Shown: positions 20,049-35,782 of the stretch, piece by piece
Position numbering within the stretch: the stretch's first letter is position 1
Layout of the letters: the number at the start of each line of letters is the position of its first letter
DNA from: an uncultured Methanosarcinales archaeon
Lineage (GTDB): Archaea; Nanobdellota; Nanobdellia; Woesearchaeales; GW2011-AR9
Reading direction: 5' to 3'
DNA length: 64,000 nucleotides
Assembly: GCA_964343575.1 (NCBI GenBank)
Contig: CAYFJV010000002.1
Span: 395,809 to 459,808 of the forward strand
Program-made: the position numbers and the translations under genes
Notes under the pieces: generated by a model
What the model was told of the DNA's origin: nothing
Seen by the model: only the letters and a program-made list of their open reading frames with translations
Databases searched by the model: none

Positions 20049-21518
20049 CTATTCTTCAACAAGTTCTCCAACAATACTTCGGAGCATATGCCCGGTAACT
20101 TTTACTTTAATTTTCTTGTTTAGAGGTAGCCTTCCTTTAATCCCAATCACAAGCGGATAAGTTCCCATCTGCCGAGCAAAGGTTGTTTTCCCATCATAGA
20201 TCTCTGTCCAGACATCAGAGAGCACAGTCCCTACTGGTACTAACTTTTCAAGGAGAGGGTTGTCAATTTCTTGACGAATCTGGTTACGCCATTTCCAATA
20301 ATATTGTTTATTTTTCTTCACATACTTGTTCCCACAAAGCTTTTCGAGAAGTGTGTTTGGAAGCACAGCTACTTGACGCACATTGATTCTTCTGAGTAGC
20401 AAGTTATTGTCAAGGATTTTGTGCAGAGCTTTCATGTTATTCTCATGGCTTTCTTTATTTTCTTTGCAAAGTCCAAATATGATATTAATCCCAGGGAGAA
20501 ATTTGTGTAAACCATTCTTTCCACGAACTGCGCCGTGTTTATTTATAATCTCAATTGCTTTGTGAGCAATAATCGGGGCTGTGTTTAGTTTGTTTTCTTT
20601 GACTACTTTGGGATCAAAGCTTTCTACTCCAAAGGCGGCAATGTTTCCAGGTGAGCAGTGTTCAACGATTGCTTTGGTGATCTCTTCTCCGCCAGGAGCT
20701 ACCACTGAGTTAGGGTTTACATTGTCGATGTGTAGCACTTCAATATCTGGGCAGCTTTCTCTAATTTGTTTGAGAAGTTCAATGGGTCTATCGCTTGCAT
20801 AGAAGTCGGCTTGCTTTCCTAATCGAAAATAGCGTGCGCCCGCCTTGTAATAAGCTCGCACTTCGGCAAGCACTTCTTCCATCTTTCTGTTCACAAAGTT
20901 GTTTTTGATTGGTTCGGTACAGAAGCTACACTTGCCAATTTTACATCCTCTTCCGGTTTCAATCTCGATCATGAGGCGATAAGGAATTTGGTTGAGGAGC
21001 TCTGCTCCTTTGGGAGCTAGTCTTGCTAGTTGATCAAAAGAAAGGCCAAAACTTTTTTTCTCATCAAAGATAGAAAGATCTTCTTTTTCTGCGAATTTTC
21101 CTCCCTCTAATTGTGTCCCAAAAAGAACTGGTCCTGTGAGGATTTTTTTCATTTTTGGGTTTAGGTCCTTGAGTAAGGGGATGACTTCGCGAAGTGTTCC
21201 TGGAAGTGCGCTGAGATACTTTCCTGGTACATGTACACCCACAAGAACAATAAGGGTGTCGGTGTTTTTTAGAGTGTCCTCTGCTTTGTTTTTTGTGAGA
21301 TTATAGATCTTAATATTGGTTTTATCTTTTTCAGTTACTTTCTTTATTTTATTGTTGTAGCTTTTCCAAAGTCGAAGATCATCAATAGTGAGGTAATTTA
21401 CTTCGTGTCCTTCGCTTGTAAGTTGTGCATAGATGTAGCGAGGATAAGTTCCTAAATAAGGGGGGACTCCTAGTCCGGAAGCTTCATCGGTGTAACAGTC
21501 TAAGATGGTGTAACGCAT
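20049..21518 (-). CDS. radical SAM domain protein with an N-terminal B12-binding-like domain
   Basis: CKIGKCSFC (CxxxCxxC) radical-SAM cluster motif following an N-terminal Rossmann-like region; 489 aa. Confidence 0.7.
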   Translation of the reverse strand: MRYTILDCYTDEASGLGVPPYLGTYPRYIYAQLTSEGHEVNYLTIDDLRLWKSYNNKIKKVTEKDKTNIKIYNLTKNKAEDTLKNTDTLIVLVGVHVPGKYLSALPGTLREVIPLLKDLNPKMKKILTGPVLFGTQLEGGKFAEKEDLSIFDEKKSFGLSFDQLARLAPKGAELLNQIPYRLMIEIETGRGCKIGKCSFCTEPIKNNFVNRKMEEVLAEVRAYYKAGARYFRLGKQADFYASDRPIELLKQIRESCPDIEVLHIDNVNPNSVVAPGGEEITKAIVEHCSPGNIAAFGVESFDPKVVKENKLNTAPIIAHKAIEIINKHGAVRGKNGLHKFLPGINIIFGLCKENKESHENNMKALHKILDNNLLLRRINVRQVAVLPNTLLEKLCGNKYVKKNKQYYWKWRNQIRQEIDNPLLEKLVPVGTVLSDVWTEIYDGKTTFARQMGTYPLVIGIKGRLPLNKKIKVKVTGHMLRSIVGELVEE

Positions 21519-21628
21519 AGGTCAAAAAAGCCAAGCTTCTTTTATAAAAGGTTCTTTAGAAAGAGAGAATGAGAGCACAATAATCTTTTTAAGAAAAAGT
21601 TGGATCCAAAAATGTAAGAGGTGTTATT

Positions 21629-22321
21629 GTGGCAGATTTGCATATTGGTGTTGTGGGAAATATTGGGGCAGGGAAGTCTACTCTTGTTGAGAAGATGAAA
21701 AGCCCTCGTTTCAAAGAACTTCTTTTTCAACGGCTTTCACACTTGATCTCAAATAGAGAGATTCTTACCTTTAGTGAAGAGTTTGATGAAAGCATTTTAG
21801 AAAAGTTCTATTTGGATCCCAAACGTTATGCGTTGATGGCCCAGCTTGAGTTTTTTAATGGAAGATTTACCAGGCAAGAACGCATTGCAGTTAATGGGGG
21901 CATTGCTGTAGAAGATCGAACACTTAAGGAGGATTATCACGTTTTTGGAAAGGCTCAGAAAATCCAGGAGAATATGACTTTGGAAGAGTTCAAAGCTTAT
22001 GAGAAAATGTTCAAGCTGTTTACTCAAAAAATGTCTGGTCCCGATGTTATCATTTATCTTCGAGCAGATGTGGGAACAATCTTGAAGCGGATTGCCAAGA
22101 GAGGACGTGATGCTGAGAAAGAGATCTCTATAGAGTATCTCAGTTTACTTGCTTATCTTTACGAATCCTTTATTGCAAATCATTGTTCTTGTCCAGTGAT
22201 TATTATAGATGCAAATCAAGAAGCAGAGACTGAGGAATACTTTGAACTGATCATGAACCAGCTGATTCAAAAGGTGCTTTCTTTGCGAGAAAGTGAGCAG
22301 TATCTCAATAAAAACCTTTAA
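21629..22321 (+). CDS. deoxynucleoside kinase family protein (dAK/dGK/dCK-like)
   Basis: P-loop VVGNIGAGKST at the N-terminus and a DR..KEDYHVF (ERS-like) motif; about 230 aa. Confidence 0.6.
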   Translation: MADLHIGVVGNIGAGKSTLVEKMKSPRFKELLFQRLSHLISNREILTFSEEFDESILEKFYLDPKRYALMAQLEFFNGRFTRQERIAVNGGIAVEDRTLKEDYHVFGKAQKIQENMTLEEFKAYEKMFKLFTQKMSGPDVIIYLRADVGTILKRIAKRGRDAEKEISIEYLSLLAYLYESFIANHCSCPVIIIDANQEAETEEYFELIMNQLIQKVLSLRESEQYLNKNL

Positions 22322-22348
22322 AAAAGGATCTCAATTCTGCCCTTGCAC

Positions 22349-22422
22349 GGCCCCGTGGCTTAGCCTGGTAGAGCGCACGACTGATAATCGTGAGGTCCGG
22401 AGTTCAAATCTCCGCGGGGCCA
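22349..22422 (+). tRNA. tRNA-Ile (anticodon GAT)
   Basis: Manual fold: acceptor GGCCCCG/CGGGGCC, D stem GCTT/GAGC, anticodon stem CACGA/TCGTG with loop CT-GAT-AA, T arm CGGAG-TTCAAAT-CTCCG. Confidence 0.85.
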
Positions 22423-22516
22423 CTTCTTTTATCTGTTTTTTTATCTCTCAATAGTCTTTGTTAGGTTTCGTTAGTTTTTTAAACCTGAAGATAGGAAAAG
22501 AAAGTGGTGATTTATT

Positions 22517-23260
22517 ATGAAAAAACATCTCGAAAAACCAATGATTCAAGGACTCTTTCTTCTTGTGATCATTGCAGGGCTTTTCTTTCTTATTGGAAGT
22601 CAGCAAAGTCTTGCAGAGAAGGATACCATTAGTGTTAGCGGGGCAGCGCAGTTGGCTACAACTCCTGATCAAGCAGTATTAAGTTTTAGTGTGGAGACTG
22701 TTGCAAATACTGCTGGGGATGCGCAAAATGAGAACAGTGTAATCATGGATGGATTGCAGGCGGCACTTGTTGAAGAAGGAATCTCAGAGGAAGATATTGA
22801 GACTACTTATTATTCTTTACATGAGCAGCAAGAGTATGATTATGATAGCCGAAGCTATGTTGATAATGGTTTTAGAGCATTTCATAGTATCTCTGTAACT
22901 ACTCATAATATTGATAGAATTGGAGAGTATTTGGATATTGCTGCAAACGCTGGAGTGACGCACATTGGGAACATTAATTTTGTAATCTCAGATGAGGCAG
23001 AAGCAAAAGTGAAACAAGATCTTCTTGGTCAAGCAGCCTTTGATGCTGAACAGAAAGCAGCGTTGATTGCAGATGGTTTGGGAGTTGGTCTTGGAAAGGC
23101 AGTCTCTGTCGTAGAGACGAGCTATTCTCCGTTTTATTATGCAAGGGCTGCTGGCGGAAGTTATGCAATTGAAGAAGCAGATCTTGCGGTTGAAGTGCCG
23201 ATTGCTCCGCAAGAAGTTGATCTCAGTGTAGATATTACTGTGGAGTTTTTGATAAAATAG
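22517..23260 (+). CDS. SIMPL domain (DUF541, BP26/OMP28-like) secreted or membrane-anchored protein
   Basis: N-terminal TM/signal segment, then TISVSGAAQLATTPDQAVLSFSVET...A..NA.. as in SIMPL-domain proteins. Confidence 0.55.
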   Translation: MKKHLEKPMIQGLFLLVIIAGLFFLIGSQQSLAEKDTISVSGAAQLATTPDQAVLSFSVETVANTAGDAQNENSVIMDGLQAALVEEGISEEDIETTYYSLHEQQEYDYDSRSYVDNGFRAFHSISVTTHNIDRIGEYLDIAANAGVTHIGNINFVISDEAEAKVKQDLLGQAAFDAEQKAALIADGLGVGLGKAVSVVETSYSPFYYARAAGGSYAIEEADLAVEVPIAPQEVDLSVDITVEFLIK

Positions 23261-23465
23261 GAACTTTAATTGTTCTTTTCCTTATTTTTCTTTTTTAATC
23301 TCTTTCTCTTCTTTCTTTTTTAGTTTTCTTTCTTTTTATTGAGAATATAGTTTGAGCAGTCTAAATCTTTAAATAGCAGTTTTCGCCCTTTGTTGTCATT
23401 CAAAAATGCTAAAACACTCGGCTCTGAGTAGAAGCAGAGCTTGATTCAAAAGGGGGAGAGGGAAA

Positions 23466-24473
23466 ATGAGGAAAATTTCACTATTATTACTGGTTGTACT
23501 TCTAGCGGCGACTTTACTGTTAAGCGGCTGTCTTAATTACAAGGCTTATGATGTTCCGGAGGAGGAAACAACAGAAGAAGACCAGGATCTTTTGGCAGAA
23601 ATTGCAGAGATTGAGCGGCAACTTGAAGAAAATGATCTAGTGAGTGATACTGAAGAGCTTACTGTTGTTGAGGAAGAAGTAGCACTTCCTGATTTTGGCG
23701 AAGAAAGTGCAGAAACTATCATTATTGAAGTTGATGAAAGTGATCTTGTTAAACTGAACCATGTGATTATTGATCCGGATAACGATCATATCGAATACGC
23801 TTTCTTGCCGCCCTTAAGTTCTCTTGGGGTTTGGCAAACAAACTATGGTGATGCGGGAGAGTATTATTCTACACTTACTGCAAGTGATGGGGTGCACACT
23901 ACTGAGCAAGAACTTTTACTTGTGGTAAACAGGGTGAATGTTGCTCCTGAGCTTGACGGTGTTCGAGATATGACTTATCGTGAAGGAGACCAAATTACTT
24001 TTGATCCAATCGTGAGTGATCCAAACAAAGATGCAGTGAGCATTACTGTTTCTGAGCCGCTTTCTGAAGGAGTTTGGCTGACAGATCACACTAGCGCAGG
24101 AGAATATGAAATCATTGTTACTGCAAGTGATGGTGAGTTAAGCACAGAAGAGACTTTCTTCTTGACTATTCAGGATGTGAATGTACTTCCAACAGTTGAA
24201 GGTTTAGATCGAGAAGTGCGGATCATGGAAGGAGAGACTGTTGAGCTTAGCCCAAGCATTGAAGATCTTGATGGTGATTACCTTAGTGTCCGCATTAGTG
24301 AACCAGTAGGAGATGATGGTATCTGGGAGACTGGCTTTACTGACCATGGAACTTATGATGTAACTATCACTGTAGATGATGGTAAAGATGTGGTGCGAGA
24401 GGTAGTGACTGTTATCGTAGAAGATATCAACATGCCGCCACAGATCATCGATGTCTCTCTTGCTTTAGAGTAG
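23466..24473 (+). CDS. surface lipoprotein-like protein with about 3 dystroglycan-type cadherin-like (CADG/He_PIG-like) repeats
   Basis: Signal peptide with an LSGC lipobox-like motif. Repeats of about 90 aa: V/I-DPD.D...Y.F....GxW.T.Y.DAGEY...TASDG......VNV.P. Confidence 0.65.
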   Translation: MRKISLLLLVVLLAATLLLSGCLNYKAYDVPEEETTEEDQDLLAEIAEIERQLEENDLVSDTEELTVVEEEVALPDFGEESAETIIIEVDESDLVKLNHVIIDPDNDHIEYAFLPPLSSLGVWQTNYGDAGEYYSTLTASDGVHTTEQELLLVVNRVNVAPELDGVRDMTYREGDQITFDPIVSDPNKDAVSITVSEPLSEGVWLTDHTSAGEYEIIVTASDGELSTEETFFLTIQDVNVLPTVEGLDREVRIMEGETVELSPSIEDLDGDYLSVRISEPVGDDGIWETGFTDHGTYDVTITVDDGKDVVREVVTVIVEDINMPPQIIDVSLALE

Positions 24474-24596
24474 ATGTATCAGTTGATGTATCTTAGAAGT
24501 ATTTTTCTTTTTTTTATCTTTATATCATAGATGTGAGCAACAAGCAGAATTAAAAGGGGATGATGGATAATTCACCTAGAGGAGAATTCGAAAACC

Positions 24597-26969
24597 ATGA
24601 AAAAAACACTTACACTCATCATCCTTTTACTCCTTGGCTGCGCCCTTCTTTCTAGCAGCATTTTGGCAGTAAAGACTTTCACTGTACAAGAAACTGACGA
24701 GCTTGACTTAATGCCAGAGGCAATTGATCCTGATGGAGATCAAGTAGTTTATTATTTCCCTCCGCCTTTTGATGATGAAGGAGTTTGGGAAACTGGTTTT
24801 GAAGATGCTGGGGAGTATCTGATTGACATTACTGCAAGTGATGGTCAAGAGCAGGATGTAGAAACTGTTAAAATAATTGTAACTAATAAGAACCAAGCCC
24901 CGACCTTTAGTGAGAGTAGTATTACTGTGCAAGAAGGAGATTTAGTTGATCTTACTGAATACATTGTTGATCCAGATGAAGATATTCTTGACTTTGACTT
25001 TGAAGGGCCTTTTGATCAAGGAGGACAGTGGCAAACTACTTTTGATGATGCTGGTCGCTATGTTATTGATGTTGTTGCTGATGATGGAGAGATAATTGTT
25101 GAGGATCGTTTTGAGGTTCTAGTTGAAAATGTTAACCAAGCTCCTGTAATTGAGGGTCTTTTTAGTGAAGATGATGAGTACGTAATCTACCTTAGCGAAG
25201 GAGATTTGTTTAGTTTTGATATTGATGTTGTCGATTATGATGGTGATGTGCTCTCTATTATCTGGGACATCGGTGGTATTTTAGTTGGGGATGGAGAGGC
25301 AAGTATCGTTGAATTGGGCTATGATAGTGCTGGAGAACACATTCTTACTGTTCGCATAAGTGATGGACAAGAAGAAGTTGTCAAGGAGTGGCGTCTTATC
25401 ATTGCGGATACCAATCGAGCACCAAGTGTTGGTGATCAAGAACTTACTGTGTATGAAACGGAAGTTGTTAGGGTAGTTGATCTTCCGAGTACTGATATTG
25501 ATGGAGATGCACTTAGTTATAGTTTTGAGGCGCCCCTTACTAGTGAAGGAGATTGGACAACAAATTATGAAAATGCGGGAAGTTATACTGTGCTAGGGAC
25601 TGTGAGTGATGGAGAGTTAAGCTCAACTTTTGAAATCTCTATTGAAGTGATTGATGTTGATCGCGCCCCTGAAATTTATGGCACTGAGCGAATTGAACTT
25701 GCTGAGAGCCAAGAACTTCTTTGGGGTTTACATGCAAGTGATCCTGATGGTGATGAAGTGAGTTTTGAGCTAAGTGGTCTTCCTGATGATGCTGTCTTTG
25801 ATGACAAGGATAACACTGTGAGTTGGGTTCCAAGCTATGATCATGTCGTTAGGAGTGAGAACTTCTTTTCAAATTTTTTGAATGCAATCAGGGTGGAGAA
25901 CTTTCTTTTTGGGAAAGAGAAAGCTGTGGTTGAGATTCGTGCTTGTGGTAAAGAACTTTGTAGCAGCAGAGAAGTGGAACTTGTAGTGAGTAATACCAAT
26001 CGAGCTCCAAGCGTGACTGAAGTGTATAACCAAGAAATAAATGAGAATGAGGAGATTACACTCTTTGTTGAAGGAAGTGATCCTGATGGAGATGTTTTGC
26101 GCTATACTTTTAGTGAACCATTGGGTCTTCGAACAGGATATTGGCAAACAAGTTATGAAGATGCAGGCGAGCATGTTGTGTATGTGACTGCAAGTGATGG
26201 TTTTGCAAGCAGTACTGAAGAAGTAATTATTACTGTGAATAATATTAATAGGTTGCCGAGTATTTCAGTTCCAGATGAGAAAATTCAAGTAAATGAAGGG
26301 GAGGCATTTAGTTTTACAGTAGAAGCCTTTGATCCAGATGGAGATTATTTAGAAATTGTGGCGAACAATCTTCCAGTAGGTGCATCTTTTGTTGATAATG
26401 TTTTTAGTTGGCAAGCAAGCTATGATACGGTTGAGAACAGAAGTACAAGTTTTTGGAACGGATTGGTGAGTCATACTCCTTACACAAATAAGAAGTTGAG
26501 TCAGGACATGGCTACAGAGTGGATTGAGTTTAGTGTGAGTGATGGTGAGTTTAGCGCAGTAGTTCCTGTGGAAATCCAAGTGAAAAATGTGAATCGTCTT
26601 CCTGTAATTCATGAAGCACTTCCAAGTAATGGTGCGGTTCTTAATGCTCAAGTGCAAGGAGATGCGCTTATCTTTAGTGTAGAAGCAGACGATCTTGACC
26701 ATGATGAGCTTACTTACACTTGGTCTTTTGGTGGTGGTTTTGACCTGACTAAGGTTAAAGGAGAAGATGCTACTAGTATTAGTCGGGTTTTTAGCACTGC
26801 TGGAGAGAAAACGGTGAAAGTAAAAGTAAGTGATGGAAGAAATAGTGCAAAGTATAAGTGGACCATTGATGCTGATGGAAACGGTGGTTATACTGTTGTT
26901 ACTACGCAACCGGTCGTTACCCCTGCGCCTTTTACTTATCGAATCTTTACTATTGAAAATTGGAAGTAG
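24597..26969 (+). CDS. large cell-surface protein with about 8 cadherin-like (CADG-type) repeats; putative adhesin
   Basis: Signal peptide; many repeats with DPDGD.L.Y.F, G.W.T.Y.DAG.Y.V.VTASDG and VNRAP/TNRAP motifs; 790 aa. Confidence 0.7.
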   Translation: MKKTLTLIILLLLGCALLSSSILAVKTFTVQETDELDLMPEAIDPDGDQVVYYFPPPFDDEGVWETGFEDAGEYLIDITASDGQEQDVETVKIIVTNKNQAPTFSESSITVQEGDLVDLTEYIVDPDEDILDFDFEGPFDQGGQWQTTFDDAGRYVIDVVADDGEIIVEDRFEVLVENVNQAPVIEGLFSEDDEYVIYLSEGDLFSFDIDVVDYDGDVLSIIWDIGGILVGDGEASIVELGYDSAGEHILTVRISDGQEEVVKEWRLIIADTNRAPSVGDQELTVYETEVVRVVDLPSTDIDGDALSYSFEAPLTSEGDWTTNYENAGSYTVLGTVSDGELSSTFEISIEVIDVDRAPEIYGTERIELAESQELLWGLHASDPDGDEVSFELSGLPDDAVFDDKDNTVSWVPSYDHVVRSENFFSNFLNAIRVENFLFGKEKAVVEIRACGKELCSSREVELVVSNTNRAPSVTEVYNQEINENEEITLFVEGSDPDGDVLRYTFSEPLGLRTGYWQTSYEDAGEHVVYVTASDGFASSTEEVIITVNNINRLPSISVPDEKIQVNEGEAFSFTVEAFDPDGDYLEIVANNLPVGASFVDNVFSWQASYDTVENRSTSFWNGLVSHTPYTNKKLSQDMATEWIEFSVSDGEFSAVVPVEIQVKNVNRLPVIHEALPSNGAVLNAQVQGDALIFSVEADDLDHDELTYTWSFGGGFDLTKVKGEDATSISRVFSTAGEKTVKVKVSDGRNSAKYKWTIDADGNGGYTVVTTQPVVTPAPFTYRIFTIENWK

Positions 26970-27045
26970 TTTTTTTTCTTCTTTTCTCTTCTTTACCTTT
27001 TTCTTCTTTTTCTTTTCTAGTTTTTTATTCTCATTTTTGATCCAA
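26970..27045 (+). terminator. polypyrimidine/T-rich tract downstream of the adhesin gene (archaeal-type terminator). Similar tracts follow 23261 (about 23275..23345), 34124 (about 34125..34180), 62386 (about 62390..62460) and 62589.
   Basis: Long CT-rich runs with multiple T4-T8 stretches immediately 3' of stop codons. Confidence 0.4.
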
Positions 27046-27079
27046 ATGTATTTAAGCAAGCAGGTCTCTTGGTTTTTCT

Positions 27080-28828
27080 ATGGATGATACCATTCGTTTA
27101 GCATTAGAAACCATTGAACAGGGAAAGCAAGCAATTGTTTTTGTAGCCAGTAGAGCAAGTGCTGAGAAGACTGCTGAAGATATTGCAAAATTGCGCCGTG
27201 GTACTGATCCTCGACTTCAAGAGATTGCTTACGCAGCTGAGACCACGCTCTCTGCTCCAACTAAACAATGTATTCGTCTCTCTAAAATTCTTAAATCTGG
27301 CATTGCTTTTCATCATGCAGGGCTTGCCAACAAACAAAAAGAGATGATTGAAGAAGAGTTTCGCAAGGGAACTATCAAGATCATTTGTGCAACACCAACG
27401 CTCGCTGCTGGTCTTTCGCTTCCTGTCTTTCGGGTAATTATCAAAAGCTTGAAGCGTTTTTCTGGAAAATGGGGCATGGATTGGATACCTGTACTTGAGT
27501 ACTTACAAATGGCGGGGCGTGCGGGGCGTCCAGAGTATGAAAAGTTTGGTGAAGCAATAGCTATTGCAAAAAGTGAAAAGGCTAAAGAAGAGATTTACAA
27601 ACGTTACATCTTAGGTGAGCCAGAGGATATTTATTCTAAACTTGCAGTTGAACCAGTACTGCGAACCTACCTTCTCTCACTTATCTCATCTGGAATAATC
27701 AAAGATGAAAAGGAAATGAAAGAGTTCTTTAAGCAAACCTTTTGGGCGGCGCAGTTTAACGATTTTGAAAAGTTAGAAGAGATCATGGAAAAAATGCTTT
27801 CTCTGTTGCATGAGTGGGAGTTTGTGCGTGTTCTTGAAGAGGATGGGAAGGAAACAAGAAAAGAGAACAACACACAAGAAAGCAAAAAAGAAAAAGCAGA
27901 ACAGAAAAAGGAAAAAATAAAGCAAGCAAAAAGCAAAGACATTCTCTCAGAGTTTACCATAGCCAGCAACTTACTCAAAAAACTACGCAGAGAAAAAGGC
28001 ATTCCAGAGCCAGAAAACAATTTCAGTACAGACCAAAAACAAAAAAACCAGAACAGAAAACTCAAAGCTACTCTTATTGGAAGAAGAATCTCACAACTTT
28101 ATCTTGATCCACTCACAGCAAAGCACATCATTGATTGTTTAAACACTGCGCAAGAATTGCAGGGGCGGAATGAAGGGGCCGAGGGGACTGAAGGAGGGAC
28201 AAGCTCTTTTTCTTATTTGCAAATGATTTCTAATACTCTTGAAATGCGCCCTTTGCTGCGTATTAAAAAGAGCGGGGATGATAAACAGCGTGCACAAACT
28301 GCTTTGCTTAGTCACTATGAAGAATTGCTTAGTCCGGAGCCAGAAGTTTATGACATTGATTACTATGATTACATGAACTCGATTAAAACTACACTTTTTT
28401 TTGAAGAATGGATTGATGAAAAACGTGAAGATTATCTCTTTGATCAATTTAGCATTCGTCCAGGGGAAATTCGAGTGAAACTGGAAAATGCAGATTGGTT
28501 GCTTTACGCTGCAGATGAGCTAGCGGTCTTGCTTGGTTTTAAGGAAGTGGGTAAGGAACTTAAACAGTTGCGGGCACGAGTTAAGGTAGGAGCTAGAAAA
28601 GAGTTGCTTGTGTTGCTTAAGGTGAAAGGAATCGGGAGAAGTAGGGCCCGAACCTTGTATAATAATGGAGTTAAATCTCTTGGAGATTTGAAAGCTATTG
28701 ATCTGGCAAGTTTGGCTCAGTTGGTGGGACCAAAAACTGCTGTGAAGATCAAAGAGCAATTGGGCCAGGAAGTGAAGGAAGTTCCTAAAGGTAAGAGAAA
28801 GGGACAGTTGAGTTTAGGGAAATTCTGA
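27080..28828 (+). CDS. hel308: Hel308/Ski2-like helicase C-terminal half (RecA2, winged helix, ratchet and HhH domains) lacking the N-terminal RecA1/DEAD domain, with a K/E-rich insertion
   Basis: Begins at the start of the RecA2 domain (AIVFVASRASAEKTAEDIA). Ski2-type GIAFHHAGL, motifs V and VI (ATPTLAAGLSLP, QMAGRAGRPEYEKFGEAIAI) and a C-terminal HhH (VKGIGRSRARTLYNNGVKSLGDL) are present. No Walker A or B motif. Only about 110 bp separate it from the upstream gene. Confidence 0.75.
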   Translation: MDDTIRLALETIEQGKQAIVFVASRASAEKTAEDIAKLRRGTDPRLQEIAYAAETTLSAPTKQCIRLSKILKSGIAFHHAGLANKQKEMIEEEFRKGTIKIICATPTLAAGLSLPVFRVIIKSLKRFSGKWGMDWIPVLEYLQMAGRAGRPEYEKFGEAIAIAKSEKAKEEIYKRYILGEPEDIYSKLAVEPVLRTYLLSLISSGIIKDEKEMKEFFKQTFWAAQFNDFEKLEEIMEKMLSLLHEWEFVRVLEEDGKETRKENNTQESKKEKAEQKKEKIKQAKSKDILSEFTIASNLLKKLRREKGIPEPENNFSTDQKQKNQNRKLKATLIGRRISQLYLDPLTAKHIIDCLNTAQELQGRNEGAEGTEGGTSSFSYLQMISNTLEMRPLLRIKKSGDDKQRAQTALLSHYEELLSPEPEVYDIDYYDYMNSIKTTLFFEEWIDEKREDYLFDQFSIRPGEIRVKLENADWLLYAADELAVLLGFKEVGKELKQLRARVKVGARKELLVLLKVKGIGRSRARTLYNNGVKSLGDLKAIDLASLAQLVGPKTAVKIKEQLGQEVKEVPKGKRKGQLSLGKF

Positions 28829-28889
28829 GTTAAAAAGCGGGGTCCAAGCAACAGTAAGCTTTATAAAGCACCCCCTCACACAGCCCCCT

Positions 28890-29432
28890 ATGGCAAGAAT
28901 TAGAGCATTCAACGCATACCGAAAGCTTGAGCGACCTTACACTCGGGTAAGTAAGTATAACAAGAAGAACTTTGTACGTGGAGGACGACCTCATTCTAAG
29001 ATCATTAAGTTCGATTTAGGGAATAAAAAAGGAGATTTCACAAGCGTTGTGCGTCTTAACGTTACTAAAGCTATCAATATTCGAAATAATGCTTTAGAGT
29101 CAGCAAGACTTACCTCTAATAGATATTTAGAAAGAAACATTGGTAAGGCTTACCATATGAGGATCAAAGTTTATCCTTTCCACCTCTTGAGGGAGAACCC
29201 TTTGGCGAGTGGAGCGGGTGCTGATCGTATGAGCACTGGTATGAAGAAGTCTTTTGGGAAAATTATTGGTTCTGCTGCGCGTGTTAAGGTTGGACAAACC
29301 ATCATTGAAGTGCGTGTAGACAAAGAGAACATCAAAGCAGCAAAGATTGCTATGGAGCGAGCTTCTAAAAAAGTTCCTTGCTCTTGTAAAATTGAAGTAA
29401 TTGAAGATGCTGCAAAGCCAAAGGCGGCATAA
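28890..29432 (+). CDS. rpl10e: 50S ribosomal protein L10e (uL16)
   Basis: Strong collinear similarity to archaeal/eukaryotic L10e (MARIRAFNAYRKLERPYTR...); about 180 aa; a TTTATAAA box lies about 25 bp upstream. Confidence 0.9.
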   Translation: MARIRAFNAYRKLERPYTRVSKYNKKNFVRGGRPHSKIIKFDLGNKKGDFTSVVRLNVTKAINIRNNALESARLTSNRYLERNIGKAYHMRIKVYPFHLLRENPLASGAGADRMSTGMKKSFGKIIGSAARVKVGQTIIEVRVDKENIKAAKIAMERASKKVPCSCKIEVIEDAAKPKAA

Positions 29433-29469
29433 GTGTTGTTTTGTTTCTTTCCTCTCGCCCTTTCTTACT

Positions 29470-30417
29470 TTATCTTCTCCATCTCTCTTGCATGCGTAAC
29501 TCTTCTTTAATACGTTGGAGTTGCGCGTTTACATGATCCAGTTCTTGAGGGGGTATTGGATGATCTCCTTCTACTTTTGAAGAGATTTTTTTTACTAAAT
29601 CGATTGCAAGATGTTCAATGGGAGTCTCTCTTTTTGCGGGCCCCAGTTTTTTCTTCACCCTGCCAAGGAAACTTTCTGGAGCTTGTGTGGATTGGTCTAG
29701 AAGAGAGTCTATGTGAGCAAGTTCTCTAGCAAAATGCATTTGCTCTGCATTTTTGCTTGGAAGGCGAGTGAACTCTCTTCTTCGTTTCTTTAAAGTAGAG
29801 AAGCTTTCAGCAAGGCTTGTGGGGCTAGTTCTTGGTCTTCCATGAAGATCTTTCTCGACTTCTGCTAGCTTGAAGGCAAATTCTTGATCTTGAGCGAACT
29901 TTTCTTTCATTTTTGGGAAGCGACGTTTGTAAGCTTTGATTTGAGTTTGGAGCTTGCTGAGGTCCTCCTCCAGAATAGTTCTTGCTCTCTCCCTCTCAGA
30001 CATTTCATGCCAAGCGGGAGTTCCATATTCTGTAGAAAGGTCTTTTTGAACAGAGTTAAGTTCTTGATGTAGATAAGCTAACTCTCCGTCAAGGTTGAAC
30101 TTTCTTTTTCTTCCCCAGCGAGCAATGCTTGGTGTAAAGGAATCCTCAATGATGTAGCCTGTCCCTTTTTTTCTTTGTTCTTGCTGAGCTAGGTCTTCTT
30201 TTGCTTGTTCATGAACTGGAAGACTTACTCTTTCTGAGAAAAGATCTCTTGCTTGTAATTCTTGTTCGAGCTTTCTCCACTTCTTGATCTTTTGTACATG
30301 TAAGAAATGTTTGATAATAAGAAAGACGATGATGATAAGAATGATAAGATTTGCCCCAAGAAGCAAAAGGTCTCGTGAAATGTGCTCTAAAGATAAAAGA
30401 CTTTGAAAATCTATCAT
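29470..30417 (-). CDS. hypothetical membrane-anchored coiled-coil protein
   Basis: N-terminal TM helix followed by a charged heptad-rich region. Confidence 0.45.
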   Translation of the reverse strand: MIDFQSLLSLEHISRDLLLLGANLIILIIIVFLIIKHFLHVQKIKKWRKLEQELQARDLFSERVSLPVHEQAKEDLAQQEQRKKGTGYIIEDSFTPSIARWGRKRKFNLDGELAYLHQELNSVQKDLSTEYGTPAWHEMSERERARTILEEDLSKLQTQIKAYKRRFPKMKEKFAQDQEFAFKLAEVEKDLHGRPRTSPTSLAESFSTLKKRRREFTRLPSKNAEQMHFARELAHIDSLLDQSTQAPESFLGRVKKKLGPAKRETPIEHLAIDLVKKISSKVEGDHPIPPQELDHVNAQLQRIKEELRMQERWRR

Positions 30418-30520
30418 AATTCTATCACTCAGAGGAGGACTCTTTTTTTCCTTATTAAAACTTACTCTTGCAGACTCTTTTTGTGAGAAGGGCTTAGGAC
30501 TTGGTTTTTCCCAAATTAAA

Positions 30521-31180
30521 TTATTTGATCCCTAATTTATGTAATTTTCTGCTCACCGTCTCTGGGCGAAGCTTAATTTTCTCGGCAATCCTTTTTACTC
30601 TTCCTTGCTCGGTTTGGTAATGGTAACTTAAGAATTCTTTCTCAAAATGACTCTCCGCTTGTTTCCAAGTCATTTCTTTGTGAGGAAGCTGGGTTGCAAT
30701 ATCCTTTGAGAGGCGAGGGAGTTCTTGGTAAATTTTTTCAATCATATCTCCTTGAAGCAAATTTTTGTATTGTTCTAGTGTGCTGCGAATGGTGTTTGTA
30801 ACTTCTCTTGCTTCAACACTTTCTTGGATTTCTTCTTTCTCTTCTCTGCTTTTTGCTTTTCTCATCTCTATACCTAGTTCTCTGATTGCACGATGAATAG
30901 ATCTTCTGTCAAGACCAATGAACTTGGCGAGTTGAGAAATATTCCCTGCATGTCTTGCAAGTTCTCTCTCGATGAATGACTTTTTGAACCAACGCTTGGC
31001 TTCTGCAAAAGGAGAATTGAAGTGAATGAAAGTATCAAGATTTTCTTTTTTGAGTTTATCGGTGATATCTTCTTCAATCTTTGGAATCACAACACCCCAA
31101 TTTTTTTCCATACTTTCTTCTATCATTGGAGCTACTTTTTTCTCTACAACTTCCTCAAGACTTTCTTGTTGCTTTTCCAT
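30521..31180 (-). CDS. DNA-binding protein with two Fis-type HTH (HTH_8) motifs and no AAA+ domain
   Basis: Two C-terminal-type Fis/NtrC HTH signatures: ERELARHAGNISQLAKFIGLDRRSIHRAIRELGI and GRVKRIAEKIKLRPETVSRKLHKLGIK. Confidence 0.55.
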   Translation of the reverse strand: MEKQQESLEEVVEKKVAPMIEESMEKNWGVVIPKIEEDITDKLKKENLDTFIHFNSPFAEAKRWFKKSFIERELARHAGNISQLAKFIGLDRRSIHRAIRELGIEMRKAKSREEKEEIQESVEAREVTNTIRSTLEQYKNLLQGDMIEKIYQELPRLSKDIATQLPHKEMTWKQAESHFEKEFLSYHYQTEQGRVKRIAEKIKLRPETVSRKLHKLGIK

Positions 31181-31195
31181 TTTTTCCCTTAGACT

Positions 31196-31513
31196 TTAAT
31201 CTAGAGTTTTTTCCTTCCTTTTCTTTTCTCTTTTTTGTTTTTCCTTCTTTTGGTCAATAATGAAGAGGGTCGTTTGTAAAGTGCTTAGAAAGAAGAAAAG
31301 ACTTCCTGAAAGATAGAGGTACTCTTGGCTTTTCTCGCTTAGGATACTTAAGGTCATTGATGCAATAAAAAGAGCAAGTATGATGTTTCTGGCAATCGTA
31401 AAGTATTTCTTTCCTTCTTCTAGCTCTTCTTCAGCAAGAAAAGCAAGAATATAACCTACGGCGATTCCTAAAAGGAAGGCGAGTACGAAGAAGAGTATTA
31501 TTGTGCTTACCAT
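31196..31513 (-). CDS. small hypothetical membrane protein
   Basis: 105-aa ORF with 3 hydrophobic segments and a K/E-rich tail. Confidence 0.3.
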   Translation of the reverse strand: MVSTIILFFVLAFLLGIAVGYILAFLAEEELEEGKKYFTIARNIILALFIASMTLSILSEKSQEYLYLSGSLFFFLSTLQTTLFIIDQKKEKQKREKKRKEKTLD

Positions 31514-31553
31514 CTTTTCACCACTTTTGTTTACTCATTTGATTACTTATTTC

Positions 31554-32657
31554 TTACTTAATGACTTTGCTTTCTTTAAGTTCTCTTTCAAACTCTTTGA
31601 GAAAGCGAGGCCAATCATCTTTTGCAATAACTGCACCACAGGCATTGAAGTGTCCTCCGCCTCTTCCTTCAACTCCCTCTAAGGCTTTTTTAAGAGGATC
31701 AAGAATGTTTGCGCCAACCTTTGCTCTCAGACTTGCCTTTATTTTCCCATCATGTTTTCTAGCAATAATTACTACTTTATCTTGGTTGAAAGCGGTGAGC
31801 TCATTAGCTAAGTTTGCAGTGAAAGACCACTTTCTGTCCTGATACTCATAGATGATAAATGGCTTGTTTTTTTTAATTTGTTTTTTTGCATCAGCGAGCA
31901 CTTCTTCGTACTCTCTATTGACCTTGGCAAACTTCTTGTAAACGAATTTTCCTGCAGGACTGCTTTGATTTAAAATTTCATAAGGAGATTTTACTTTTCG
32001 TAATGCACTTATGCTCTTCTTTGCTTCGCTTGAGCTGCCCTTAAGGATAAAGAAAAAGAGTTTTACTAGAATTCCAATCTTATTCTTGAAAAGAGCTGTG
32101 CTGATGTCTGCATCTTTATCCATGAGATCAGGATAGGCTTTGATGAACTTGTCTTTGAAGTTTGGGATATGGAAGTCGGCAAGGCAGCCAACCATGGCAA
32201 TCCAAAGATCCTCTTTCTTTCTCTCTGAGATTTGGAAAGCCATTCTTGTCGTTGGAATGTAGGCATGCGGATCTTTTTTTCTTGGATTGTAATATTTTAC
32301 CTTTTTTCTTTCCAAGGGTTGGTGGTGATCAATCCAATACACGGGAACTTTTACATCATCAATAAAATCTTGATCAACTCTAGAAATGTCTAAAACAAAA
32401 ACTGCATCAAAGAGATATTGGTTAATCTTTGGAATAAAAGAGCTGTCTAAAAGATGGGAAGTTCTTAAAGGAACTCCTTTTCCTTCTTGTTTATAACGGT
32501 ATAAAAGAAGGTAGGAAGAGAGCCCGTCTCCATCGTTGTCGTGGATGAAAAGTGGGCTCTTAATCTCTTGAAGCTTTTTTCTTAAGAAGCCAATTTCCTT
32601 GTTTGTGAGCATTGCTTTTGGTATCCTTTGCTTGTTTTTAAATGCTTTTCCTGGCAA
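31554..32657 (-). CDS. DHH-family phosphoesterase with DHHA1 domain (archaeal RecJ/GAN- or NrnA-like)
   Basis: Motifs HDNDGDGLSS, DHHQ and C-terminal GRGGGHFNACGA (DHHA1 GGGH). Confidence 0.75.
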   Translation of the reverse strand: MPGKAFKNKQRIPKAMLTNKEIGFLRKKLQEIKSPLFIHDNDGDGLSSYLLLYRYKQEGKGVPLRTSHLLDSSFIPKINQYLFDAVFVLDISRVDQDFIDDVKVPVYWIDHHQPLERKKVKYYNPRKKDPHAYIPTTRMAFQISERKKEDLWIAMVGCLADFHIPNFKDKFIKAYPDLMDKDADISTALFKNKIGILVKLFFFILKGSSSEAKKSISALRKVKSPYEILNQSSPAGKFVYKKFAKVNREYEEVLADAKKQIKKNKPFIIYEYQDRKWSFTANLANELTAFNQDKVVIIARKHDGKIKASLRAKVGANILDPLKKALEGVEGRGGGHFNACGAVIAKDDWPRFLKEFERELKESKVIK

Positions 32658-33607
32658 GCTTTAAAAATGGTTGTCTGAATTTTTTGGGAAGAATGATCCA
32701 AGAACTTAACAGTATTACGGCAGGCGTGATTGAGAGGTACCTTGAGATAAGTGTACCTCACTGCCTTTCGGGAAGACTTCCAGATATACATGGAGAAGGA
32801 GTAGCCAAACTGAGTTATGGTACTGGGATTAACCTTAATGGGCCACAACATGTTTCTCCAACGAGGGTAGCTTATGTGCGGGTGGGTGACCGGGTTTTTG
32901 TTGATTCCTGCTATCGTGAAAGGATGGAGAAGGTTCTTGGAGATTGTAGCAAATCTGTCTTGTATTTAGAACACTTTGATTCAATTCTTGGTTGGGGTCA
33001 CGAACATATGGCTTACTCTTCTTTGATGGCGAGGGCTACTCGCTCTGCAATGATGTTTGGGTCTCATGTTTTAGATCTTGGAGCGGGAGATGGCCTTGCT
33101 AGCCTTGTTGCTCTTAGTAGTGGAGCTTCTCGGGTTATAGCAGTTGATAGAGATGAAGAGCCTTTAGAAAAGATGAGAAGACACCTTCAAGCGAATGATT
33201 TTGATTTGGGGGGAGTTCGCCAGCTTTGTTATGATATTACTGATCCCTCTCTTGAGGAAGCACTTGTTGGTGAACAGCCACACATTGTGCTTGCTAACAT
33301 TGGAAAAAACCAGTATCCTGGAGATCCTAGTTCTTCTGCAATTGCTCTTGCAGGAAAGATGCCTTCTGTTTTTACTTTTGTTGGAAGTGGTTATGCCAGG
33401 GGATGCAAACATGACCCACAAGAAGATTTAGATGCTTTGGCTGCTTATGGTTTTAGATCAGTAAGGTTTTTTGAGTTTGTTGCTCCTCCCCATGCGGCTG
33501 ATGCTGGAAAGGTTCTGCTTTCTTTTGTTGCCACTCGTCCAAGAAGGAGGATTGGAGTAAATAGAAAGAACAGAGGAGATAGAGGGAATAATGGAAATAG
33601 AGGATAG
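32642..33607 (+). CDS. class I SAM-dependent methyltransferase (PrmA-like) with an RG-rich C-terminal tail; true start probably downstream of the listed one
   Basis: Motif I VLDLGAGDGLASLVALSSGASRVIAVDRDEEPL; the listed start overlaps the upstream convergent gene. Confidence 0.55.
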   Translation: MLFLASFKNGCLNFLGRMIQELNSITAGVIERYLEISVPHCLSGRLPDIHGEGVAKLSYGTGINLNGPQHVSPTRVAYVRVGDRVFVDSCYRERMEKVLGDCSKSVLYLEHFDSILGWGHEHMAYSSLMARATRSAMMFGSHVLDLGAGDGLASLVALSSGASRVIAVDRDEEPLEKMRRHLQANDFDLGGVRQLCYDITDPSLEEALVGEQPHIVLANIGKNQYPGDPSSSAIALAGKMPSVFTFVGSGYARGCKHDPQEDLDALAAYGFRSVRFFEFVAPPHAADAGKVLLSFVATRPRRRIGVNRKNRGDRGNNGNRG

Positions 33608-33658
33608 GCTGAAAGAGGATTAGAAAACTTTATATCTTCTTTTTTCTCTTCACTTTTT

Positions 33659-34123
33659 ATGAAAACAAAAAAAATTAATCTTAAAAGAGCTCTTGGTATC
33701 GGGCTTGTTGCTTACATTGCTTCTTTTTTCATTGGCATCTTAACTGCGGTGCTTGTTGGTATTAATTTGGGAGTTGAGAGTGAAGTTCCGGCCTTAGTTT
33801 GGCAAATTGGTTTAGTAAGTACTTTGTTGATTGGCCTTGTTTTTGGTGGATGGTATTTTGCTGGAAAGAAAACTGGAAAAGGATTACAGGAAGGAGGTTT
33901 GCTTGGTCTTTGTTTTATCGCCGTTGGATTTGTAATAGATTTTGTGCTTATTATCCCTTACATTATTGTTAGTGGTGCGCCCTCAGATGTTTGGGCTTAC
34001 TATTTGAGTCCTTACTTTTGGGGATCTTTGTTTTTGCTGCTTGTTGCTACTAGCTTTGTTGGTTGGTGGAAAGAAAAGCAGGGCAAGAAATGGCTCGGTT
34101 TTATGTTTTCTTCCAAATCCTAG
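33659..34123 (+). CDS. hypothetical polytopic membrane protein
   Basis: 154 aa, 4 hydrophobic segments. Confidence 0.45.
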   Translation: MKTKKINLKRALGIGLVAYIASFFIGILTAVLVGINLGVESEVPALVWQIGLVSTLLIGLVFGGWYFAGKKTGKGLQEGGLLGLCFIAVGFVIDFVLIIPYIIVSGAPSDVWAYYLSPYFWGSLFLLLVATSFVGWWKEKQGKKWLGFMFSSKS

Positions 34124-34214
34124 TGTCTTGATTTTTTGATTTTTTTCTTCGTTTTTTATTCTTTTTTCACTATTTTTAGAAAGATTTTAAAAGAATTCGT
34201 CGATTTTTCATGTT

Positions 34215-34688
34215 GTGGAAAGTCTTCGAATTGTTGAGTCTGGATTTGTTGGAAAAGATGGTTTAGTAGTTTATCTTTCTAATGGCTCAGGAACACGTGT
34301 CTTTACTTTAAACAAGGGAACCTTTGGTACCAGGTGGGAGGATTACGTTGATAGGGCTGGTCTTTATGATCATTCTGACGGTACTCTTCTTGCCGCCCTT
34401 ATTAGACCACTTCCAGGTAATTTGTTGCGAACTTTCTGGTCGGGGGGCAGGGTTTCTCAAAGGGAGTTTGCGGCTTATTGGAGTAGAGGAGGAGATGCTT
34501 GTGCCTCATTGTCTAGTGAGACTGAAGCAATCGTTTGGTGGAGACATTTTTTGAGGAGTGATGGTTACCAAATCGCTGGAAGTCTTGAAAGGGCAGAGAT
34601 TCCTTCAGATGAAGCTTTGCATGGTTTCCCTCCTAGTTTGGGAGAGAACACTCTTTATCAGCAATATCTTTGCCTTAGGGAAGGCTAG
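34215..34688 (+). CDS. hypothetical protein
   Basis: 157-aa ORF, no recognised motif. Confidence 0.4.
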   Translation: MESLRIVESGFVGKDGLVVYLSNGSGTRVFTLNKGTFGTRWEDYVDRAGLYDHSDGTLLAALIRPLPGNLLRTFWSGGRVSQREFAAYWSRGGDACASLSSETEAIVWWRHFLRSDGYQIAGSLERAEIPSDEALHGFPPSLGENTLYQQYLCLREG

Positions 34689-35152
34689 TCTTTGAACTGG
34701 TAAGAAAGTAAGTTATACTCTTCTGTGTTATAGAATTTGATCTCTTTCTCATGCTCAAGCACAAAGTATCTTATGCCTGTTTCAAGTGCTAATTTGCTGC
34801 ACACCGTACAATAAGGCTGCCCTGCTTTTGTTGCTTTGTTGTTCTTGTCAATACGCATGAAATAGAGTGTTGCACCTTGGACTTTGTCTGGGTGTTTTTT
34901 GAGTGCATCAAGAATGGCTCGTTGCTCAGCATGGATACAACAAGTCTTATCGCTTACTTTTCTGTGCAGTTTTGTTTTGTCTTCTTGGCATCTGCGTTGA
35001 GCTTCAAGATGTTGAGGTGGGGAGTTGAAACCAATGCCAATAATTTTGTTGTCCTTGACGATGATGCTACCACACTTTGCTCTTTGACAAGTTGCAAGCT
35101 GTGCTATTTCTGCTGCTTGATCTAAGAAGTGTTTTGCTTGACTTTCTCGCAT
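34685..35152 (-). CDS. dCMP/cytidine deaminase family zinc enzyme (deoxycytidylate deaminase-like)
   Basis: Zinc-binding motifs HAEQRAI and PCTVCSK (H.E ... PC..C). Confidence 0.75.
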   Translation of the reverse strand: MRESQAKHFLDQAAEIAQLATCQRAKCGSIIVKDNKIIGIGFNSPPQHLEAQRRCQEDKTKLHRKVSDKTCCIHAEQRAILDALKKHPDKVQGATLYFMRIDKNNKATKAGQPYCTVCSKLALETGIRYFVLEHEKEIKFYNTEEYNLLSYQFKD

Positions 35153-35283
35153 TGCTGTTTTTCTTTTTCTCTTGATTATATGTTTTGTTATCTTTGGGCA
35201 TTATCTTTAGGCAGTTCTGAAGAGCACTGGCCACAGGACAGTTTTGGTGAGCAATTAAATAGCTTATTTTTTTTAGTTTAGTT

Positions 35284-35742: not shown

Positions 35743-35782
35743 GTGCTTGTAAAATGGCTTGGAGATGGAGGAGGATTTATAA

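Follow-up and report, generated by a model that had tools for sequence, protein, structure and literature searches.

Archaeal Hel308/Hjm, represented by PDB entries 2zj2, 2p6r, and 2va8 and by the NCBIfam families NF040935 and NF002654, is a Ski2-like SF2 DNA helicase. Domain 2 of P. furiosus Hjm comprises residues 198-399, and the C-terminal PIP box of the protein is needed for PCNA binding (PMC2636818). Motif IVa plays a role in the switch between unwinding and annealing, and the annealing activity of Hel308, which is governed by motif IVa/domain 2, can be uncoupled from unwinding (PMC10484726). A second group of relevant systems comes from the Nanoarchaeota N. equitans and Nst1, where reverse gyrase, Lhr, AlaRS, Topo I, and others are encoded by split genes (Podar et al. 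2013, PMC3655853 Table 1). Nanoarchaeum is also known for split inteins and trans-spliced tRNAs (PMC3655853, PMC3491384), and the halves of its PolB (NEQ068/NEQ528) come from two unlinked genes and carry a split intein. Hel308 is absent from the published nanoarchaeal split-gene lists that were examined, including PMC3655853 Table 1.

The window, i.e. the whole 64-kb stretch of DNA that was analysed, contains a gene for a 582-aa protein that very probably forms the C-terminal part of a Hel308/Hjm DNA helicase made of two subunits, which are encoded by two distant genes and would assemble non-covalently. An earlier note on this DNA had described the ORF as a Hel308-like helicase without its N-terminal ATPase half, and the ORF exists as claimed. 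The features of the locus are as follows:

27049..27056, + strand: TATA-box-like element TATTTAAG, centred ~27 nt upstream of the ATG.
27080..28828, + strand: CDS of the proposed C-terminal subunit (582 aa plus stop), identified by Pfam, NCBIfam, and 2zj2 matches, with an in-frame stop 8 codons before the ATG.
27080..27610, + strand: incomplete RecA2 (aa 1 to ~177), equivalent to Hjm ~223-399; alpha1 and the motif IV strand open the domain, whose first beta-hairpin is absent.
27299..27325, + strand: motif IVa GIAFHHAGL (aa 74-82), with A76, F77, H78, H79, G81, and L82 invariant in 27 family members.
27389..27424, + strand: motif V ATPTLAAGLSLP (aa 104-115), with T105, L108, A109, G111, S113, and P115 invariant in 27 family members.
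27506..27532, + strand: motif VI QMAGRAGRP (aa 143-151), with Q143, M144, G146, R147, A148, G149, R150, and P151 invariant in 27 family members.
27611..27844, + strand: winged-helix domain 3 (aa ~178-255), HTH_61, with the Hjm alignment running to residue 475.
27845..28060, + strand: K/E-rich low-complexity insert between domains 3 and 4 (aa ~256-327), a gap between two Hjm-aligned stretches, with pLDDT <50.
28106..28594, + strand: ratchet domain 4 (aa ~343-505), PF21280, equivalent to Hjm 476-642, with pLDDT >85.
28595..28774, + strand: helix-hairpin-helix domain 5 (aa ~506-565), HHH_5.
28805..28825, + strand: C-terminal Q-x-x-L-x-x-F tail QLSLGKF, with G575 and Q576 invariant and the tail kept in the family.

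The domain content of the protein agrees closely with what had been read from the sequence. Pfam identifies Helicase_C at aa 68-151, the winged helix HTH_61 (PF20470) at aa 157-249 (E=4.6e-5; 24.1 bits, marginally below the cut-off of 24.3), the ratchet Helicase_dom4_arc (PF21280) at aa 378-504 (E=1.7e-27), and HHH_5 (PF14520) at aa 511-561 (E=3e-10). The RecA2 motifs IV, IVa (F/YHHAGL), V, and VI are all present, with the ATPase arginine fingers located in motif VI. The RecA1 domain with Walker A and B had been reported missing, and this is borne out: no DEAD, ResIII, or RecA1 domain is matched by Pfam in the 582-aa protein, and motifs Q, I (Walker A), Ia, Ib, II (DExH), and III are absent from the polypeptide. 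The matches to the NCBIfam Hel308 equivalogs are confined to profile positions ~230-712, and the protein stays below the equivalog cut-offs (433.6 bits against 887 for NF002654, and 297 against 1200 for NF040935) because it covers only about two thirds of the profile. Among solved structures, P. furiosus Hjm 2zj2 matches best (residues 229-711, E=2e-74), and the match to Hjm extends from ~residue 223 to the end. The K/E-rich insertion of ~70 aa also holds up, with 17 K and 10 E in 73 residues; it is lineage-variable, absent in most relatives, and kept in some family members. The QLSLGKF tail is a probable PCNA-interacting (PIP) box, judged from its conservation in the family and from the C-terminal PIP box of P. 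furiosus Hjm.

One detail of the earlier description needs correction. The ORF had been placed as starting exactly at the RecA2 boundary; domain 2 of Hjm begins at residue 198 and the ORF at ~223, so the break lies ~20-25 residues inside RecA2, and the missing residues are those of the WRPVxL beta-hairpin element. The AF2 model of the C-terminal half (C-half) begins with a helix (residues 3-13) followed by the motif IV strand (residues 18-21). When the C-half is modelled alone, its RecA2 core is poorly defined with low pLDDT, which may be explained by the shallow alignment of 27 sequences.

The missing part is found as a protein of its own. A large family of stand-alone RecA1 proteins of ~220 aa (N-halves) is labelled Woesearchaeota/Nanoarchaeota, the same phylum as the C-half. 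These proteins have intact motifs (Q motif, PTGSGKT, DEIH/DEVH, and SATIGN), and their genes are found inside contigs as long as 1.16 Mb. The N-halves all terminate after WRPVxLxKGxYxxGxxEF, and W205, R206, P207, V208, and L210 are invariant in them, even though this element structurally belongs to RecA2. Their AF2 model consists of RecA1 plus a terminal beta-hairpin. The N-half corresponds to Hjm 15-213, ending at ~216, and the C-half to Hjm ~223-720, with no overlap between them; together they span the whole Hel308 protein.

Intact sister genes show the same layout in a single ORF of 703-737 aa. Six full-length metagenomic genes (L436, L444, L450, L452, L467, and L471) and the proteins P0146 and P0136, of which P0136 and L467 are Aenigmarchaeota-like, have the same motifs as the halves, with 43-58% identity to the C-half of the window and 52-54% identity to the N-halves, and some of them, e.g. 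P0136, share the QxxLxxF end. Alignment with them agrees with the tiling of the two halves. Exactly at the stop codon and new start of the split clade, the intact genes join the two parts by a variable hydrophilic loop of 8-14 residues, which reaches 54 aa in P0161. In NJ trees, which carry no support values, the N-halves form one clade, the C-halves form one clade except for P0145, and both clades are sister to the same set of full-length genes. The distance ranks of the two half-families are correlated (Spearman 0.80, p=4e-8).

The C-half gene is real and is conserved across a large DPANN clade. All 120 of the best homologues listed are 503-587 aa long and lack a DEAD domain, and the architecture recurs in thousands of database proteins. 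Relatives are encoded in 329 GTDB species representatives, the best 80 of which are all stand-alone C-halves in Woesearchaeota/Nanoarchaeota MAGs; likewise, ranks 1-16 among the 150 closest 50%-identity representatives are C-half only. The C-halves have a fixed 'MD' start, and 27 family members show no variation in motifs IVa, V, and VI, R147 and R150 included. Arginine fingers serve a purpose only together with a RecA1 partner. Two C-half-only relatives contain inteins, P0123 in motif V and P0132 in motif VI. Inteins typically sit at functionally critical sites of expressed proteins. In the N-halves, the catalytic motifs are invariant too, the termini are fixed, and the genomic context is conserved. 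This pattern points to purifying selection on both halves as independent genes across the lineage.

The gene also appears to be expressed on its own. It is separated from the preceding PKD/Big-repeat surface-protein gene, which ends at 26969, by the 110 bp that had been counted before. The TATA-like element ~27 nt before the ATG points to an independent, probably leaderless, transcript. In the orthologues, 66 of the 79 distinct upstream regions have a TATA-like box that starts at -34..-24, the A+T fraction is 0.95 at -30..-25 compared with a background of ~0.66, and an in-frame stop lies a few codons before the ATG. The order of PKD genes, C-half, and uL16 is retained in a 780-kb contig of a relative. 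An Rfam scan beside the C-half gene found no C/D-box sRNA or other family.

The two halves are not neighbours. The N-terminal half had been thought not to be encoded adjacently, and indeed the 64-kb window has no gene for a Hel308-type RecA1; apart from the C-half, its sole SF2 helicase is the complete DEAD-box protein encoded at 37498-38820. The N-half loci do not overlap with the window, and none of their neighbour genes (enolase, aPGM, FtsY, prefoldin, and PRPP synthase) occurs in it. In some lineages, a ~430-aa LAGLIDADG/HTH gene overlaps the start of the N-half gene; a 431-aa ORF of the window is not homologous to it. On a wider scale, the +-10 kb around 85 C-half loci were searched by tblastn with Hel308 N-halves, and N-half loci (first 25, later 80) with the C-half; no adjacent split pair emerged, so that the halves are never within 10 kb of each other in 110+ loci. 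Seven N-half assemblies (CAYVNN, CAYHAM, JASMIE, PVBE, SDBV, JACPIF, and JACPTF) were compared with the best 80 C-half assemblies, and none coincide. Proximity of GenBank accessions likewise gave no pair, although by extrapolation N-half P0342 may lie within ~12 assemblies of JACOZP, which contains the C-half locus L041. Viral contigs scanned with both profiles gave only distant giant-virus helicases of 25-39% identity. Both families are labelled Woesearchaeota/Nanoarchaeota and have congruent trees, and an N-half would probably be encoded in the same genome as the C-half, including that of the window's organism.

The genuine two-piece helicase that had been favoured for this locus is supported: the C-half is conserved and independently promoted, the N-half family is complementary to it, and both half-families have their intact sister genes in common. 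A single hel308 gene would have been broken in the ancestor of a large Woesearchaeota/Nanoarchaeota (DPANN) clade, at the variable surface loop ~20-25 residues into RecA2. The 5' piece of ~220 aa, with RecA1 motifs Q, I, Ia, Ib, II, and III and the first RecA2 beta-hairpin, would have turned into a gene of its own at a distant housekeeping locus. The 3' piece, with the rest of RecA2 (IV, IVa, V, and VI), the winged helix, the ratchet, the HhH, and the PIP-like tail, would have gained its own TATA promoter and start codon. After translation, the WRPVxL hairpin of the N-half may complete the RecA2 beta-sheet in trans, and Walker A/B of one chain would face the motif VI arginines of the other to make up the ATP site. 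Assembled in this way, the helicase would work as a normal 3'-5' Hel308 motor at stalled forks and in the control of recombination, with PCNA as its probable tether. Physical assembly, hairpin complementation, DNA-dependent ATPase and helicase activity, and PCNA binding are predicted properties of such a pair.

When compared to Hel308/Hjm, the C-half has domains 2-5 in the same order, with the same motifs, ratchet, HhH, and PIP-like tail. In contrast, the two-piece protein is encoded by two genes at distant loci, the C-half lacks RecA1 and the first part of RecA2, and the lineage of the window has the extra K/E-rich insert. The Hel308 case is a further example of the known DPANN split-gene phenomenon. 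As in the Nanoarchaeota, a reduced-genome DPANN lineage uses two unlinked genes for a protein that other organisms make from one, post-translational assembly is presumably needed, an SF2 helicase (Lhr) is among the cases (PMC3655853), and the split is kept throughout the lineage. The conservation of the Hel308 split across its lineage indicates that it is derived and old. Unlike the nanoarchaeal cases, the Hel308 clade is a mesophilic Woesearchaeota-type radiation of hundreds of species, and the break lies inside a RecA domain and not between domains, which is why a beta-hairpin would be donated in trans.

A regulatory role of the split is also conceivable, although unlikely. Separate subunits could let stoichiometry or conditional assembly regulate the Hel308 switch between ATP-driven unwinding and ATP-independent annealing or fork binding, with the C-half alone acting as a PCNA-tethered annealase and the N-half recruited on demand. 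In a quite unlikely alternative, the C-half would be a stand-alone, ATPase-independent DNA-binding or strand-annealing factor or a clamp-bound scaffold, working alone or with PCNA, and the RecA1-only family would be unrelated in function or only an occasional partner. The distance between the halves, their different promoters and genomic contexts, the separability of Hel308 annealing from unwinding, and the location of the DNA-contacting domains 2-5 and the PIP-like tail all on the C-half would suit such a factor. However, motif V and the motif VI arginine fingers are invariant and are targeted by inteins, which argues for a live ATPase site, and this needs RecA1. Moreover, an isolated RecA1 would have no use for the invariant RecA2-derived hairpin that the N-half retains, and the exact tiling at the break and the congruent phylogenies of the halves speak against unrelated functions.

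Covalent joining of the halves after expression, by split-intein trans-splicing or at the RNA level, is very improbable. Like the PolB of N. equitans, the proposed helicase is made from two unlinked genes, Nanoarchaeum provides precedents in its split inteins and trans-spliced tRNAs, and inteins occur within the Hel308 C-half family. On the contrary, the N-halves stop 0-2 residues past the Hel308 hairpin in most loci, which leaves no room for an IntN of ~100 aa, and the C-halves start with 'MD' and align to Hel308 from residue 2-7, with no IntC and no HN-C/S/T junction. In the relatives, the inteins are contiguous and interrupt motifs V and VI, away from the break. Split-intein trans-splicing is thus largely refuted by the termini of both halves, and, unlike in PolB, ligation is not expected at a break without intein fragments. 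As for RNA-level joining, archaea are not known to have a mechanism for mRNA trans-splicing. Non-covalent assembly of two proteins is therefore the most likely arrangement, as far as the termini can tell.

A decaying hel308 remnant or an assembly or gene-calling artefact, both raised earlier, is refuted by the conservation data. One third of the protein is missing, the NCBIfam cut-offs are not reached, and of the 5 differences that separate the window from the near-identical contig of an independent assembly (L004), 3 fall in the C-half gene and are nonsynonymous, but three SNPs are far too few for relaxed selection, the frame is intact, L004 is 99.97% identical over 14.8 kb with an identical junction, and at least 80 species-level genomes and thousands of database proteins share this architecture with its start, promoter, and invariant motifs.

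For the two-piece helicase, several consequences follow. Thousands of database proteins now named 'hypothetical protein', 'helicase-related protein', or 'DEAD/DEAH box helicase' could be re-annotated as the two subunits of Hel308. This affects inferences on DNA repair, as Woesearchaeota-type DPANN archaea would otherwise seem to be without Hel308. Gene fission, documented mainly in hyperthermophilic Nanoarchaeum-type genomes, would be extended to a very large mesophilic radiation, and the intact sister genes allow the break point to be dated. The system would offer a natural experiment in which an SF2 ATP site is placed across two polypeptides and RecA2 is completed by a trans-donated beta-hairpin, and a two-piece Hel308 may be useful for the study of helicase domain assembly and of the switch between unwinding and annealing.

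The helicase gene of the window is an intact ORF for the C-half of Hel308, from an incomplete RecA2 to the C-terminus, with the following surroundings.

24597–26969: surface protein of 790 aa with a signal peptide and PKD-Big repeats, upstream of the C-half
27049–27056: TATA-like box, TATTTAAG, upstream of the C-half start
27080–28828, + strand: Hel308 C-half, intact ORF of 582 aa
28890–29432: ribosomal protein uL16, downstream of the C-half
37498–38820: complete DEAD-box protein of 440 aa, the only other SF2 helicase in the window

The gap between the adhesin gene and the C-half measures 110 bp as first reported, the surface-protein ORF ending at 26969, and 61 bp separate the C-half from uL16. 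The position of the TATA-like box is consistent with a leaderless mRNA. Two tandem signal-peptide proteins (335 and 790 aa) with PKD/Big/cadherin-like repeats occupy 23466–26969 before the helicase gene. Similar PKD/Big-repeat genes lie 5' of the C-half in the homologous loci L001 and L263 (helicase identity 53–63%), at times with one or two small genes between.

Pfam assigns four domains to the protein and finds no DEAD/RecA1 domain.

aa 68–151: Helicase_C
aa 157–249: HTH_61
aa 378–504: Helicase_dom4_arc
aa 511–561: HHH_5

Together with the alignment to Hjm, the P. furiosus Hel308, these domains bear out the Ski2/Hel308 signatures, winged helix, ratchet and HhH described in the earlier note. 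Four Hel308 equivalog models of NCBIfam match only over the profile stretch that begins near position 230 and runs to its end, so the scores stay under the full-length cut-offs. The closest solved structures are Hjm/Hel308 2zj2, 2va8 and 2p6r; the C-half aligns with Hjm residues 229–475 and 476–711, and the K/E-rich insert of ~70 residues is indeed present between the two stretches. The ORF had been said to start exactly at the RecA2 boundary, which is wrong: since domain 1 of Hjm comprises residues 1–197 and domain 2 residues 198–399 (Oyama et al. 2009, PMC2636818), it starts ~20–25 residues inside RecA2. The N-terminal ATPase half is not encoded adjacently, as supposed, and a six-frame motif scan and tblastn detect no Hel308-type RecA1 in the entire 64-kb window. 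The C-terminal tail QLSLGKF (28805–28825, aa 576–582) carries a Q-x-x-L-x-x-F pattern at the very end, conserved family-wide, and looks like a putative PCNA-interacting PIP box; in PfuHjm a C-terminal PIP box is needed for PCNA binding (PMC2636818).

An assembly artefact at the upstream junction, a check proposed in the earlier note, is ruled out because the separately assembled metagenomic contig L004 reproduces the junction. Over 14.8 kb, junction included, L004 and the window share 99.97% identity (21053–35885, 5 mismatches in 14,833 bp). Three of the five mismatches affect the helicase gene, each of them nonsynonymous (G256A, L548S, K556E), a number too small to interpret. A pseudogene is ruled out by the intact ORF, the family-wide architecture, the invariant motifs and the gene's own promoter. 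The best 120 database homologues are all 503–587 aa long (identity 53–99%), none has a DEAD domain, and many are on contigs hundreds of kb long. Scanning GTDB with one genome for each species gives 329 genomes with a relative; the 80 best matches all come from MAGs of Woesearchaeota/Nanoarchaeota type in which the C-half stands alone, and none has a Hel308-type RecA1 within ±10 kb of it. Among the 150 closest 50%-identity cluster representatives, ranks 1–16 are all C-half-only (43 C-half-only and 86 full-length overall). An alignment of 27 members has a fixed 'MD...' N-terminus and invariant motifs IVa (AFHHxGL), V (TPTLAAG) and VI (QMxGRAGRPE). A TATA-like box starts at -34 to -24 in 66 of 79 distinct upstream regions, the A+T content is 0.95 at -30 to -25 versus about 0.66 elsewhere, and an in-frame stop mostly lies a few codons 5' of the start. 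The C-half start thus has its own predicted promoter across relatives.

Many GenBank CAY*/CAZ* records with a C-half (L005, L006, L009, L012 and others) are titled 'uncultured Methanosarcinales archaeon', probably a placeholder or mislabel, because (near-)identical proteins elsewhere are labelled Woesearchaeota/Nanoarchaeota.

The missing half was searched for with the first 234 residues of P0136, the nearest intact relative (730 aa), and then with a profile of the first matches. The search yields a very large family of 216–231 aa with a DEAD/RecA1 domain only, the named members being mostly 'DEAD/DEAH box helicase [Candidatus Woesearchaeota archaeon]'. These N-halves retain motifs Q, I (PTGSGKT), Ia, Ib, II (DEIH/DEVH) and III (SATIGN), and all stop directly after WRPVxLxKGxYxxGxxEF, with invariant W, R, P, V and L. 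They are complete genes within contigs of 260, 269, 532 and 788 kb and 1.16 Mb. Many share a recurring housekeeping neighbourhood, in which enolase/phosphoglycerate mutase precedes the N-half and FtsY (SRP54 family), prefoldin and PRPP synthetase are convergent with it. On Hjm the N-half covers residues 15–213 and ends at about 216, and the window C-half starts at about 223. By alignment, the two families are seen to tile Hel308, a short loop alone being missing.

In some lineages only, a conserved ~425–431-aa gene overlaps the N-half start by 4 bp (L085 8709–10004, L389 8727–10004; also L086–L091 and L390), so the two may be co-transcribed. Its product combines a LAGLIDADG-like GHxLGDGY motif with an HTH at the C-terminus and is 48% identical from one lineage to another; the 431-aa ORF of the window (18180–19475) shows no homology to it.

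The N-half profile also retrieves six intact genes from metagenomes (L436, L444, L450, L452, L467, L471; 703–737 aa), whose C-terminal parts reach 58% identity to the window protein. In these and 26 other full-length Hel308s the split point is a variable hydrophilic linker of 8–14 residues; it is enlarged to 22–54 residues in some full-length Hel308s and is therefore an insertion-tolerant surface loop. In neighbour-joining trees the N-halves form one clade, and so do the C-halves including the window protein, P0145 being the sole exception. Each clade has the same set of intact sequences as its sister (L436, L444, L450, L452, L471, P0146), and ranking full-length proteins by distance to one or the other half-family gives correlated orders (Spearman 0.80, p=4e-8). 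This pattern fits one ancient fission whose products would both have been kept and co-evolved.

No N-half and C-half occur within 10 kb of each other (±10 kb around the matches), none of seven N-half assemblies is among the 80 listed for the C-half, and accession matching gave no pair either. We infer that both halves share a genome from their shared taxonomy, exact complementarity, congruent phylogeny and jointly meaningful catalytic residues. The two-piece helicase of the earlier note thus stands as to the conserved C-half, the complementary N-half family and the congruent trees, and a pairing of the two within one genome is probable.

Split-intein trans-splicing is rejected. No remnant of an intein is present in either half where the gene is split; N-halves mostly end 0–2 residues past the hairpin, and C-halves align to Hel308 from residue 2–7. 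Splicing of the two proteins in trans is therefore unlikely, and assembly is probably non-covalent. AlphaFold models the N-half (pLDDT 84) as a RecA1 fold with a terminal beta-hairpin and has the C-half start with a helix followed by the motif IV strand, in agreement with the tiling. In the C-half modelled alone, domains 4–5 are confident and the RecA2 core around motifs V–VI is of low confidence, which is only suggestive because the alignment is shallow. In the non-covalent assembly, the N-half hairpin would complete the RecA2 sheet in trans, and the ATP site would form between chains, one contributing Walker A/B and the other the motif VI arginines. Full inteins (Intein_splicing + LAGLIDADG) are found in the C-half-only relatives P0123 and P0132 (~1000 aa), at motif V (TPTL|C...HN|SAG) and motif VI (Q|C...HN|CGRAGRP), respectively; the C-half-only P0139, P0148 and P0153 are of the same length class. 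Such inteins are read as a mark of functionally critical sites and expressed proteins.

Elsewhere in the window, Rfam reports a 110-nt tRNA at 13708–13817 (- strand), unreported by ARAGORN and probably an intron-containing archaeal tRNA. The Elp3-like radical-SAM/GNAT protein at 58560–60296 (+ strand) has no Pfam match over the ~180 residues that separate ELP3_N (aa 28–74) from the start of the radical-SAM matches (aa 260), and may contain an insertion.

Split protein genes needing post-translational assembly are a hallmark of Nanoarchaeota, including reverse gyrase, the Lhr-type large helicase-related protein, AlaRS, Topo I and PolB with a split intein, and such splits count as derived traits linked to reduction (Podar et al. 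2013, PMC3655853; Randau 2012, PMC3491384). Hel308 is absent from the lists of both papers, and no split Hel308 is mentioned in a survey of the Ski2 family, a 2026 review on Hel308/HELQ or searchable DPANN genomics papers. On the Woesearchaeota-type contig L113 (13636–15405), an alanyl-tRNA synthetase-like ORF of just 589 aa (tRNA-synt_2c + tRNA_SAD) may be a further case of a short or split gene, because AlaRS is split in N. equitans. Hel308 switches between unwinding and annealing (PMC10484726), and it is rather improbable that splitting the motor from the DNA-binding/annealing body serves to regulate this switch. The split Hel308 is classified as a new case among Nanoarchaeota-type split genes, unusual beside the known ones in its break inside a RecA domain, and notable for its breadth, with relatives in at least 329 genomes at the species level and some 40 clusters at 50% identity.
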